A stretch of 64,000 nt of DNA. Source: Thermodesulfobacteriota bacterium (lineage in GTDB: Bacteria; Desulfobacterota; Deferrimicrobia; Deferrimicrobiales; Deferrimicrobiaceae). Shown here in pieces: positions 2,894 to 6,233 of the stretch. Below the pieces are notes generated by a model. The model saw nothing but the letters and a program-made list of their open reading frames with translations, did no database searches and was not told the origin of the DNA. A program made the translations under genes and the position numbers. The stretch spans positions 5,481-69,480 of the forward strand of contig JBFLWB010000144.1 of the NCBI GenBank assembly GCA_040758155.1, written 5' to 3'. Numbering within the stretch: position 1 is the stretch's first letter; every line of letters begins with the position of its first letter.

Positions 2894-3337
2894 TCAGGCG
2901 ACCCTTTCCTCCGGCCTGAGCTCGATCTGCTTCTCCATAAGCGCCATGTCGAAGAGGTGGGTGACCGATTCCACCGTTCCCTCCTCCCCGACATCGACCG
3001 TCATGGTCACGGGGACGTCGATCTTCTTCCCGGTCGGGAAGATCGTCCCCCCCGGCGTGTCGATCGGACCTTCGTGGGTCCCGGTCCACTTCAAGATGAA
3101 GCTCGCGGTCTTGCCGTAGTCCGACATGTCCTTGATCTCTATCTTCGAATCGGGGAAAGAGGCTCCCCATTCCTGCATGATGGTCATGAACCTCTTGATG
3201 CCGTGCGTTTTCCTGCGCGTGGGAATCTCGTCCAGGACGATCCTCCAGTCGGACAGGGCCCACAACCCGGCCCAGTCCTTCTTCGCGTACGCTTCAACGA
3301 ACGCCTTCGCGATGTCGACCGGCAACTTCTCCGACAT
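2894..3337 (-). CDS. SnoaL-like/NTF2-fold ester cyclase family protein
   Basis: A 147-aa ORF with an ester-cyclase-like N-terminus (VAKAFVEAYAKKDWAGL, DWRIVLDEIP). Its GC content is visibly lower than that of neighbouring genes. Confidence 0.55.
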   Translation of the reverse strand: MSEKLPVDIAKAFVEAYAKKDWAGLWALSDWRIVLDEIPTRRKTHGIKRFMTIMQEWGASFPDSKIEIKDMSDYGKTASFILKWTGTHEGPIDTPGGTIFPTGKKIDVPVTMTVDVGEEGTVESVTHLFDMALMEKQIELRPEERVA

Positions 3338-3435
3338 TTCGTCCTCCTGACGCCTCTTGAGATGTCATGGTCACGGATTGACGGCTCGCCGATACCTCAA
3401 AATAGGATTATTCTCGATATCGCAACGGTTCGGTC

Positions 3436-3620
3436 TAAACCCGCATTTCTCTCCAGCCTCCTACTGCGGCGGCGGATACGGGCATGTCTACTGCGTTGCG
3501 CTCGGTCGGGCTCCTCGACGCACTTTCAAGTGCGCCTCCGGGGCCCTCGGTCGCGACGCCTTGTAGCCACGCCCGTCTCCACCGCCTCGCTACGGACGCT
3601 GGTGAGAAATGCGGGTTTTA
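3436..3620 (+). ncRNA. Candidate structured small RNA, rod-shaped with a 6S-RNA-like architecture, in an otherwise non-coding 335-nt gap
   Basis: A 22-bp near-perfect inverted repeat (TAAACCCGCATTTCTCTCCAGC ... GCTGGTGAGAAATGCGGGTTTTA) closes a ~140-nt GC-rich segment. The interior folds by hand into consecutive stems (ACGGGC/GCCCGU, CUAC/GUAG, GCGUUGCG/CGCGACGC, GGGCUCC/GGGGCCC, apical GCAC-UUUCAA-GUGC) with an internal loop flanked by a CUCGGUC direct repeat. The 3' arm is followed by UUUUAAAGUUUU. Strand assignment is tentative. Confidence 0.35.
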
Positions 3621-3672
3621 AAGTTTTCCGGTGTCTTGCCGATGAATCATCCGGACCGGAAGGAGGCCATCC

Positions 3673-4068
3673 TTGGGATCCGAGGGGAAGCGAAAAGTCC
3701 TGTTGATGGACGACGAGGAAATGGTGAGGTCGGTCGTCGGAGAAATGCTGAAGATGTTCGGTCACGAGGTGGAGTTCGCCAGGGACGGTAAGGAAGCCAT
3801 CGACCTGTACGTGAAGGCGAAGGAATCCGACCAGCCCTTCTCCGCGGTGATCGTCGACCTGAACGTCCCCGGCGGGATGGGGGGGAGGGAGGCCGTGGAG
3901 GAGCTCCGCAGGATCGACTCCGGCCTGAAAGCCGTCGTCTCCAGCGGTCATTCGAGCGACCCCGTCGTGACGAACTACCGGGAATACGGCTTCGACGCCG
4001 TGATCTCCAAGCCGTTCCGCGTCTCGGATCTCGGCGACACCCTGCGGATGCTGGATTGCGGGCCCTGA
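3673..4068 (+). CDS. Stand-alone response regulator receiver (CheY-like) protein
   Basis: REC-domain hallmarks are present: LLMDDEE acidic pocket, phospho-acceptor Asp in VIVDLNVPGGMGG, and SSGHS ... KPF. Confidence 0.85.
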   Translation: MGSEGKRKVLLMDDEEMVRSVVGEMLKMFGHEVEFARDGKEAIDLYVKAKESDQPFSAVIVDLNVPGGMGGREAVEELRRIDSGLKAVVSSGHSSDPVVTNYREYGFDAVISKPFRVSDLGDTLRMLDCGP

Positions 4069-4080
4069 CGCCCCGCCGCG

Positions 4081-4383
4081 CTAACTCTCCAGCTTTTCCC
4101 TGACGGCCTGCAGTTTCCCCTCGATCGTTCCCTTCTTGTCGCGCCGGTCGTCGATCCGGATCGAGGTCGACACCCGCATGGCCCCTTCGCCGAAGGGCTG
4201 CTCGTGCATTTTCCTGAGGACGGGCAGGATCGCGTCGAGGTCGCCCTCGATGATCGTTCCCATCGCGGTCAGCTCGTGCTTGAGACCGCTGTCGCGGAGC
4301 ACCCGCTCCACCCCGGCCACAAAGCGGGAAACGCTCGGCGTGGCGGTCCCGAGCGGGACCACGGTGACGAATACGACGGCCAT
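4081..4383 (-). CDS. MTH1187/YkoF-family (UPF0045) small protein
   Basis: MAVVFVTVVPLGTATPSVSRFVAGVERVLRDSGLKHELTAMGTIIEGDLD matches the MTH1187/YkoF ferredoxin-like fold family. An internal Met is chosen as the start over the longer ORF to 4425. Confidence 0.65.
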   Translation of the reverse strand: MAVVFVTVVPLGTATPSVSRFVAGVERVLRDSGLKHELTAMGTIIEGDLDAILPVLRKMHEQPFGEGAMRVSTSIRIDDRRDKKGTIEGKLQAVREKLES

Positions 4384-4444
4384 GGACGACCTCCGTTCCG
4401 ATCGGTTTTCCTGGAAATGTATCATGAATCGCGGCCGGGCATTC

Positions 4445-5215
4445 CTACCCCCGCCGGGACGGCTTCCGCCGCGCGGCGGCGCTCCCGCGGGCGCCGGGCG
4501 TCTCCTGCCCGCGGATGAACCGGGCGAGGCGGCCCACGTTCACCCGAAGGTACTTCCCGTCGCGGCGGGCCATCCCCATCCTGCGGAACCTGCCGAGCTG
4601 CGTCGTCACGGTTTCCCGCGTGGTGCCGATCAGGTTCGCAAGCTCTTCGTGGGTCAGGCGGACCGCGATCTCCGTGCCTCCCGGGGCCTTCACGCCGTGC
4701 TCCCCGGCGAGCCGCAGGAGGATCCTGGCCAGGCGGTGATAGGACCAGGTGTGGCCGAAACTCGCGTACTCCTGCTCGACCTTCGCGAGGCGCCTGGAAA
4801 GGATGCGGATGAAATTCATGGAGAACGCGGGGACCGTCGCCAGCAGTCGCTCGAGCGCGCGCCTGGGAAGGGCGGCGACCTCGGAGTCCTTCCCGGCGAG
4901 GGCCGTGAACGTCCGCCGGTCCTCGGAGAACAGGAGCTCCCCGAAGATCGCGCCGGGCGGGAGCATGTGAAGGATCGTCTCCGTTCCGCGCCCGGAATGG
5001 GAGACCAGCTTGACCATCCCATCCTTCACGATGAAGAGCGCGTCGCCGGAATCTCCCCGCTCGAAGATCACGCGGCCCTTCGGATATTTCCGTTCCGTGA
5101 ACAGGGGGAGGATCCTGTCCAGCTCCGCCTTCTCCATCCCGAGGAACAGGTCGTTCGCCGTGATGACGGAAAGCCCCATGGAATCCAATTTATCGCCCTT
5201 CCGGGGGAAGAGCAA
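4445..5215 (-). CDS. Crp/Fnr-family transcriptional regulator (cNMP-binding domain plus C-terminal HTH)
   Basis: A cNMP-binding beta-roll (GDSGDALFIVKDGMVKL, FGELLF) is followed by a C-terminal HTH (LTHEELANLIGTTRETVTTQLGRFRRMG). There is no Fnr-type N-terminal Cys cluster. The start could be the internal Met at 5179. Confidence 0.85.
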   Translation of the reverse strand: MLFPRKGDKLDSMGLSVITANDLFLGMEKAELDRILPLFTERKYPKGRVIFERGDSGDALFIVKDGMVKLVSHSGRGTETILHMLPPGAIFGELLFSEDRRTFTALAGKDSEVAALPRRALERLLATVPAFSMNFIRILSRRLAKVEQEYASFGHTWSYHRLARILLRLAGEHGVKAPGGTEIAVRLTHEELANLIGTTRETVTTQLGRFRRMGMARRDGKYLRVNVGRLARFIRGQETPGARGSAAARRKPSRRG

Positions 5216-5324
5216 TCCGGTCGGGGGCTATCATCCGGAATTGTGAAAGGTTTCACAGAACGGTTCCTGCGCGGAGAATTACGCTTTCCTTATGCAGACG
5301 CCATGAAGGCGAAAGGGGATCGCG

Positions 5325-6233
5325 ATGGAAAACGAAAGCGGGAGAGGATTCGGCTCCCTTTACATAAACGAAAGGGAAGGCAAGCCGCGGAAAAGGGGAG
5401 TGACGGAGATCCGGGGTCCGTATTACACGCCCCTCGGGAAGCGGGCGCTCCAGGACATCCTGGAAACGATGGGCGAGTACGTGGACATCTTCAAGTTCAG
5501 CGGCGGCTCTTTCGTCCTCATGCCGGAGAAGTCGGTCCGCGACCTGATCGATCTCTGCCACGGGGACGACGTCCTCGTGTCCACGGGCGGGTTCATCGAG
5601 CACGTGCTGACGATGGGGCCGGATGTCGTGGACCGGTACCTCGAGGAGTGCCGGCGGGTGGGATTTGACATCGTGGAGGTATCTTCGGGGTTCATCTCGA
5701 TCCCCGACGACGACCTCGTCCGCCTCGTTGAGAAGGTCCGCGGGCTCGGGATGCTGCCGAAGCCCGAGGTCGGGATCCAGTTCGGGGCCGGCGGCGCAAG
5801 CCCCGCCGCGGAGCTGGAAGCCGAGGGGGTGGCGGACCCGGACCGGGCGATCCGCCAGGCGAAGCGGTACCTGGACGCGGGGGCCCACCTGGTGATGATC
5901 GAGTCGGAGGGGATCACCGAAAACGTCAAGGCATGGCGCACCGGCGTCCCGGCCCGGTTCATCCGGGAGCTCGGGCTGGAAAACGTGATGTTCGAGGCGG
6001 CCGACCCGGACGTGTTTTCCTGGTACGTGAAGTCGTACGGCCCGGAGGTGAACCTGTTCGTGGACCACTCCCAGATCGTGCAGCTCGAATGCCTGCGCTC
6101 CGGTATCTGGGGAACCGCGGGAACGTGGGGCCGCGTGGTCACCTATAAAGTGCCCGCGAGAGGGCGCGCGGCGCCCGCGGCGGGCGTGCGGCAGCTGAAG
6201 GTCGCGGCGAAGGTCCGGGGGAAGGCGGCATGA
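5325..6233 (+). CDS. comA: (2R)-phospho-3-sulfolactate synthase (ComA) family protein
   Basis: Aligns by eye with archaeal ComA across its length (YVDIFKFSGGSFVL, VLVSTGGFIEHVL, GFDIVEVSSGFISIPDDD, YLDAGAHLVMIESEGIT, NVMFEAADPDVFSWYVKSYGPEVNLFVDHSQIVQLECLRSG). Confidence 0.8.
   Translation: MENESGRGFGSLYINEREGKPRKRGVTEIRGPYYTPLGKRALQDILETMGEYVDIFKFSGGSFVLMPEKSVRDLIDLCHGDDVLVSTGGFIEHVLTMGPDVVDRYLEECRRVGFDIVEVSSGFISIPDDDLVRLVEKVRGLGMLPKPEVGIQFGAGGASPAAELEAEGVADPDRAIRQAKRYLDAGAHLVMIESEGITENVKAWRTGVPARFIRELGLENVMFEAADPDVFSWYVKSYGPEVNLFVDHSQIVQLECLRSGIWGTAGTWGRVVTYKVPARGRAAPAAGVRQLKVAAKVRGKAA

Follow-up and report, generated by a model that had tools for sequence, protein, structure and literature searches.

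A rod-forming palindrome in a Thermodesulfobacteriota contig is very probably a miniature transposable element of the IS1380 family

Positions 3440-3615 of the window (the whole 64-kb stretch of DNA analysed here) are, with high confidence, occupied by a non-autonomous transposable element of the IS1380 family, a MITE without coding capacity. We identify it as such because copies of it are dispersed over unrelated loci, because these copies have terminal inverted repeats and a target-site duplication, because their ends are those of IS1380-type insertion sequences (ISs), and because the element is absent at the orthologous loci of relatives. The initial annotation had favored a 6S-like housekeeping sRNA and named a miniature inverted-repeat element as a fallback. 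It is this fallback that multicopy dispersal, terminal repeats and target duplication bear out.

The rod and its place between two divergent genes

The features of the locus are as follows (positions in the window; loci from other genomes and metagenomes are given L numbers, and A1 denotes the alignment of 46 full-length copies).

2894..3337, minus strand: SnoaL-like ester cyclase gene (Pfam PF07366)
3436..3439: flank TAAA at the position of the target duplication, degenerate in this copy
3440..3615, minus strand: core of the element, 176 nt, with boundaries from BLAST; the family consensus as aligned corresponds to the minus strand of the window
3440..3457: terminal inverted repeat CCCGCATTTCTCTCCAGC, two mismatches to the family consensus CCCGCATTTCTCACCAGG
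3501..3508: direct repeat CTCGGTCG, first copy, one side of a conserved 6x6 internal loop (A1 columns 118-123, opposite strand)
3517..3536: apical hairpin GACGCACTTTCAAGTGCGCC of the rod fold
3546..3553: direct repeat CTCGGTCG, second copy, other side of the internal loop (A1 columns 64-70, opposite strand)
3598..3615: terminal inverted repeat GCTGGTGAGAAATGCGGG, reverse complement CCCGCATTTCTCACCAGC, one mismatch to the consensus
3616..3619: flank TTTT, partner of TAAA, identical to it at only 2 of 4 positions
3617..3627, plus strand: U-rich tail TTTAAAGTTTT, outside the element and part of an older flank
3673..4068, plus strand: receiver-only response regulator gene with TTG start (Pfam PF00072)

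The element is short and lies in a non-coding gap of 335 nt (3338-3672), as had been annotated. Only two open reading frames run across it, 3357-3566 on the plus strand and 3526-3951 on the minus strand, and both are off-frame runs typical of GC-rich DNA. The previously noted 22-bp inverted repeat is present, and the 22-mers quoted for it match apart from a single mismatch (T/A) and an additional A. We found it to comprise 25 nt with 92% complementarity (3437-3461 and 3594-3618, the arms being separated by 132 nt), and within the 64-kb window the arm sequence is unique to this locus. Positions 3437-3618 make up an almost perfect hairpin of 180 nt with a z-score of about -10 to -12 against shuffled sequences. 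When the 201-nt stretch around the arms was folded as a whole, it gave a single continuous rod with a minimum free energy (MFE) of -116.5 kcal/mol on the plus strand (z -9.9) and -124.9 kcal/mol on the minus strand (z -12.4) under RNA parameters; the corresponding DNA-parameter energies were -58.8 and -67.2. None of 200 shuffles matched the MFE of the rod on either strand, so the rod fold described in the initial annotation is sound for both strands. The direct repeat and the T/U-rich stretch 3' of the 3' arm (TTTTAAAGTTTT) reported there were likewise recovered. The rod shape itself is explained by the fact that the element is an almost full-length palindrome, like many bacterial MITEs.

The two flanking genes are divergent, an orientation that had been overlooked before, and the rod therefore lies upstream of both and downstream of neither. 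For the SnoaL-like protein (147 aa), a homologue search gave an NCBI protein of 100% identity, encoded in a Thermodesulfobacteriota MAG; exact-sequence look-ups of the proteins of both neighboring genes gave no record. Four relatives (L153, L154, L156, L157) share the gene order Thiamine_BP, response regulator, SnoaL, GSDH, with 65–78% protein identity. All four lack the element in the orthologous spacer. Their spacers measure 267-294 nt and have edges in common with the window spacer, namely AACTTTAAA next to the response regulator and GAyCGAACCG...ATCyTATT next to the SnoaL gene. About 20-40 nt are kept at each edge, while each lineage has an unrelated center of its own (window 3338-3672 compared with L153 2234-2500, L156 728-995 and L157 2207-2500). 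No clean empty site was found in the relatives' spacers, where the conserved edges enclose about 150 nt of other sequence, and this is a point against the mobile-element reading. The orthologous locus thus shows a presence/absence difference for the element, without a clean empty site. The window copy would have inserted into the variable center of a divergent promoter region, and any effect on the two neighboring genes, by a hairpin in a 5' UTR or by altered promoter spacing, is a putative by-product of that insertion.

Two further observations concern the gene calls in this neighborhood. The response regulator was called as 142 aa in three of the relatives, and as 131 aa with a TTG start in the window and in L157. 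An open reading frame of 510 aa at 4136-5668 (plus strand) is an Arg/Pro/Gly-rich off-frame run and not a gene; it lies opposite the minus-strand genes for a thiamine-binding protein (4081-4425) and a Crp-family regulator (4445-5215) and overlaps in part with the beginning of ComA, a gene on the plus strand (5325-6233).

The spacer comparison also bears on a second alternative offered in the initial annotation, a large attenuator or terminator of the downstream response regulator, made of a hairpin and a U-tract on the plus strand. The plus-strand hairpin is indeed directly followed by UUUUAAAGUUUU, 55 nt before the start codon of the response regulator. However, the T-rich TTTAAAGTTTT is kept near the response regulator in L153, L154 and L156, all of which lack the hairpin. 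The U-rich tail therefore predates the insertion as a pre-existing flank, which removes the terminator or attenuator reading. The relatives, moreover, have the same gene pair without any rod, and consensus copies elsewhere are followed by CTAG and unrelated sequence, not by a U-tract. The element does not have the short hairpin with a U-tract of its own that marks an intrinsic terminator or attenuator. A promoter and terminator scan of 3200-3800 found no promoter and made no call on the rod; the sole terminator-like site is unrelated. We consider a role of the rod as an attenuator to be very improbable.

A dispersed family with IS1380-type ends

A scan of species-representative genomes with the arm pattern AAACCCGCATTTCTCNCCAG returned 29 loci in many phyla. 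Sequences of three kinds have this 21-nt terminus at their ends, namely homologues of the rod, other short palindromes and a 1.7-kb IS. Full homologues of the rod were found in MAGs labelled as Deltaproteobacteria (L015, L021, L029), in Acidobacteriota (L023) and in Bryobacterales (L028), while palindromes with the same terminus and different interiors occur, for example, in L013, L020, L022 and L002/L004/L026. A metagenome scan with the interior 24-mer pattern GAGCNCAACGCAGTNGACATGCCC returned at least 120 stretches. Among the matches listed, 77 copies had their full context and 47 were cut by a contig end, i.e. 38% of the copies are located at contig ends; so many interrupted copies are the signature of a repeat that breaks assemblies.

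BLAST comparison with 149 fetched loci matched the window unit 3440-3615 in at least 124 other loci, with identities of 69–92% and a median of 88%. The boundaries are sharp, as 45 of the 77 full-length matches among those listed start at 3440 and 50 of the 77 end at 3615. Outside the element there is almost no match, and the flanks of the copies are unrelated. The copies thus occupy many unrelated sites, and several can be present on one contig: L090, L095, L044 and L138 have two or three each, and contig L035 has one at each end. The core is 175-176 nt long in 44 of 56 distinct copies among the matches listed. A blastn search of a plasmid collection with the consensus element gave no match. 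We also noticed a rod variant of 196 nt (L036, L080, L093, L137, L140, L147) with an extra insertion of about 21 nt after A1 column 59; this insertion, e.g. CATCTGGCGCATGTCAGCCAG, forms a small hairpin in one arm only.

The dispersal weighs heavily against the idea of a stand-alone housekeeping sRNA gene, 6S-like or other, with the rod structure as its functional product. Such an RNA is suggested by the very stable fold, by a length and paired ends like those of 6S RNA, and by the fact that Rfam yields no other 6S candidate in the window. The element does share a length of about 180 nt, a rod-like fold and paired 5'/3' ends with 6S RNA (SsrS, RF00013), but it is a near-continuous duplex where 6S RNA has an open central bubble, and it lacks a covariance-model match and locus conservation. 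At gathering scores, no Rfam family matched either strand of the whole 64 kb, and at E<=10 the region 3300-3750 gave only sub-threshold, chance microRNA-like matches and no 6S; a near-consensus copy (L066) was without a match at E<=1. Lack of conservation in relatives and the presence of further copies had both been named beforehand as outcomes that would refute the 6S idea, and the orthologous spacers are without the element. The expectation of a single-copy gene is likewise refuted by at least 124 copies at unrelated loci, which have transposon ends and target duplications and lie in either orientation relative to adjacent genes. Absence from the relatives' locus together with the dispersed multicopy state rules out a 6S-like RNA gene for all practical purposes. 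The string AUUUCUCU belongs to the terminal repeat of IS1380 type, and its putative resemblance to the start of the 6S RNA of E. coli is a coincidence.

The family consensus reads CTAG-CCCGCATTTCTCACCAGG...CCTGGTGAGAAATGCGGG-CTAG, with terminal inverted repeats of 18 nt that are found across the family. In 58 copies with recognizable ends, the 4-nt flanks are mostly CTAG, followed by TTAG, CTAA, TTAA and CTGG. Both flanks are identical in 25 of the 58 copies, compared with 12.2 expected under independence. Eight of the non-palindromic flank pairs are direct repeats (TTAG five times, CTGG twice, CTAA once) and none is inverted. Since they are direct and never inverted, the flanks represent a 4-bp target-site duplication of the type YTAR and not an extension of the inverted repeat. 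A TA duplication as in IS630/mariner-like elements, suggested by the first six copies, was ruled out by the 4-bp YTAR flanks of the 58 copies and the IS1380 ends. The window copy stands against this pattern in that its flanks (TAAA/TTTT) do not form an intact target duplication. Its identity to the A1 consensus is 93.2%. Given these flanks and the two and one mismatches in its terminal repeats, it is probably an older, somewhat decayed insertion.

Forty copies had a predicted gene on both sides, as determined with a crude gene caller based on third-position GC; 27 of them lie between tandem, 10 between convergent and 3 between divergent genes. Many copies lie precisely where a gene ends: of 112 element ends, 13 have a flanking TAG or TAA that serves as stop codon for the predicted gene next to it, and in three cases the reading frame extends 26 nt into the element. 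Insertion at stop codons would be a consequence of the YTAR target in a GC-rich genome: as such tetranucleotides should be found there mainly at stop codons or between genes, element ends would often coincide with stops. The copies showed no preferred orientation with respect to the gene beside them (17 versus 14 copies).

The termini are shared with autonomous ISs. One Rhodospirillaceae MAG contains two copies (L003, L027) of a 1.7-kb IS that begins with AAACCCGCATTTCTCACCAGG; its transposase is of the PF13701 (DDE_Tnp_1_4) type and about 50% identical to plasmid proteins annotated as IS1380 and IS1380A family transposases. Annotated IS1380-family ISs have ends of the same kind:

P. putida pKF715A: CTAG-CCCGCATTTCTCACAGG...CTGTGAGAAATGCGGG-CTAG (right end also given as GTGAGAAATGCGGG)
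Rhizobium leguminosarum pRle248a: CTAG-CCCGAATCTCTC...GTGAGAAAAGCGGG-CTAG (right end also given as GAGAAAAGCGGG)
Acetobacter pasteurianus IS1380A: TCGA-CGCGGAAATCTCACAG...GTGAGAAATCCGCG-TCGA (left end also given as CGCGGAAATCTCAC)

The first 14 nt of the window element's end equal the ends of the pKF715A IS, CCCGCATTTCTCAC of the rod element being identical to both of them. These ISs also share with the rod family a palindromic 4-bp target duplication (CTAG; TCGA for IS1380A). They differ in size and content, as the ISs are about 1.7 kb long and carry a transposase, whereas the rod element has 176 nt and no transposase gene, and its interior is a long palindrome unrelated to the interiors of the IS1380-family ISs we examined. 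Published traits of the family are in agreement: IS1247 is about 1.67 kb long, with inverted repeats of 16/13 and a direct repeat of 5 bp (PMC3281130).

In both copies of the Rhodospirillaceae IS, two overlapping frames make up the transposase, with the break at an identical position (L003 1765-3185, L027 547-1991), and the two proteins differ in an 8-residue tandem repeat, IVRMIRER, with two repeats in one and three in the other. Programmed frameshifting, a defect common to both copies or an error in long-read assembly could each account for the split.

A tblastn search of the window and all loci with the L003 transposase matched L003 and L027 only. Neither the 64 kb nor any rod-bearing locus thus has an IS1380-family transposase gene, and taken by itself the lack of a partner IS there counts against the explanation. 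Since no such gene is present in the window or beside any rod copy, the element is non-autonomous, i.e. a MITE. We infer that it is mobilized in trans. The 18-nt terminal inverted repeats would be the recognition sites of IS1380-family DDE transposases, supplied by a full-length IS elsewhere in the genome. Such a transposase would excise the element and paste it at a YTAR tetranucleotide, which would be duplicated upon insertion.

The same interior is also found with another terminus, CCCGGATTATTCATGAAGG, usually with TTAA or TTAG flanks (L073, L094, L125, L127) and in L061 with CTAG-type flanks. A similar end, TTAA-ACCCGGCTTATTCATGAGG, belongs to another IS1380-family IS of pKF715A. The two ISs on that plasmid lie almost end to end (L151, about 2230-2260): the first ends with ...GAGAAATGCGGG-CTAG, and a few bases on, the second starts with TTAA-ACCCGGCTTATTCATGAGG. 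As the adjoining ISs carry both end types, the two types of terminus known from the rod family coexist on one plasmid.

There are also hybrid copies that combine one normal terminus with a third terminus, the 18-mer TCCTCGACTCTACCCAGG, at the left end in L072 and L108 and at the right end in L102; the two ends of these copies are not complementary. IS1380-family transposases reportedly misrecognize repeat-like sequences and thereby mobilize adjacent DNA (PMC9330008), and such misrecognition may be the origin of the hybrid copies.

Conversely, CCCGCATTTCTCACCAGG termini occur on short palindromes of about 57 to 300 nt with unrelated interiors:

L002 1825-2071
L004 597-860
L026 3495-3758
L005 6712-7009
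L006 1471-1715
L013 379-543
L022 about 3257-3313

Their hosts are Gammaproteobacteria, a Candidatus Versatilivorator MAG, Methylococcaceae and Hydrogenedentota MAGs. The L022 element is a minimal hairpin of about 57 nt with little beyond the two termini. Since CCCGCATTTCTCACCAGG termini surround unrelated interiors, the IS1380-type terminus bounds a set of MITE families across phyla.

Pairing in the interior of the element

The alignment A1 contains 54 predicted base pairs, and 97.8% of the cells at these positions are paired. Fourteen pairs have changed on both sides, compared with 3.7 in shuffles and with 2-6 when the partners were slid by 1-3 columns. For example, columns 41/146 form CG in 30 copies and UA in 14, and columns 94/102 in the apical hairpin form GC in 30 copies and CG in 15. 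Another pair of this hairpin (92/104) is mostly UA; L070 and L140 have U.G at these columns, and the window copy has CG. The window copy differs from the consensus at 12 positions, 8 of which fall within 4 compensated pairs. The hexamer on both sides of the internal loop is conserved. In 44 of the 46 copies, the strand as aligned, which corresponds to the minus strand of the window, folds better than its complement by about 11 kcal/mol. These counts have to be read with the way the copies were obtained in mind: they were collected with a fixed interior 24-mer, and they share ancestry, so that a few events are counted many times.

As a further point against a plain MITE, the compensatory change exceeds what neutral decay of dead copies would produce, and something beyond simple selfish spread acts on the master copies. 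It is possible that the hairpin is maintained by selection on master copies, because it aids transposition or has a role at the RNA level, or by repair from arm to arm.

A stronger proposal, compatible with the MITE reading and additional to it, is that the palindromic interior is functional and selected, as RNA or as single-stranded DNA. It could, for example, stabilize mRNA 3' ends, serve as an insulator, or form a hairpin that joins the termini for the transposase. The paired cells and two-sided changes, the compensated differences of the window copy with the U.G intermediate in other copies and the better folding of one strand all point in this direction, as do the association of the same interior with at least two types of terminal repeat and the stop codons abutting some of the element ends. 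On the other hand, shared descent inflates the event counts, the alignment was seeded with the 24-nt interior pattern, and the copies have no orientation bias to the adjacent gene. Arm-to-arm repair within a palindrome could give seemingly compensatory changes without selection, and a YTAR target in GC-rich genomes is by itself sufficient for insertions at stop codons. We therefore regard a selected interior as unlikely, although clearly less so than the RNA-gene and attenuator readings. Slightly more doubtful still is the specific version in which the interior is a portable, selected hairpin module (RNA or single-stranded DNA, one strand favored) that has been recombined with at least two to three IS1380-type termini. 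If it were true, the interior might boost transposition by joining the ends, or it might be a mobile element of the mRNA-end or insulator type that is delivered to stop codons.

Related elements and significance

As a MITE, the rod element resembles the known repeats ERIC/IRU, Correia/NEMIS and RUP, which are non-coding, intergenic, multicopy sequences of about 100-200 nt with terminal inverted repeats that form a long stem-loop when transcribed. The rod family shares the size, the multicopy state, the terminal repeats and the stem-loop spanning the whole unit. It differs in its termini and its 4-bp YTAR duplication, which point to a different transposase family (IS1380), and in its hosts, which are Thermodesulfobacteriota/Deltaproteobacteria and Acidobacteriota MAGs; this comparison was made by description only.

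Transposases of the IS1380 family have served as the prokaryotic outgroup of the piggyBac transposases (PMC10813416). The rod family is reminiscent of piggyBac in its duplicated palindromic 4-bp target, which is TTAA for piggyBac and CTAG or TTAA for the rod family. The ends of piggyBac begin with CCC, and those of the rod family do too. However, piggyBac has eukaryotic hosts and a different terminal sequence, while the rod family is bacterial.

A search of the accessible literature found no description of IS1380-derived MITEs or of the rod family, and a query with the terminal sequence as a string gave irrelevant matches only. The family is therefore probably undescribed, although it is one more example of a familiar kind of bacterial repeat and does not introduce a new principle.

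For the genome studied here, a false housekeeping-RNA candidate is removed, and a conspicuous structure is accounted for by a transposon that inserted into a variable promoter spacer. More broadly, the analysis delineates a MITE family that is widespread among the Thermodesulfobacteriota/Deltaproteobacteria and Acidobacteriota of environmental metagenomes. This family breaks assemblies, and other scans could take it for a structured RNA. For the study of how MITEs arise and persist, its maintained hairpin and swapped termini may be of interest.
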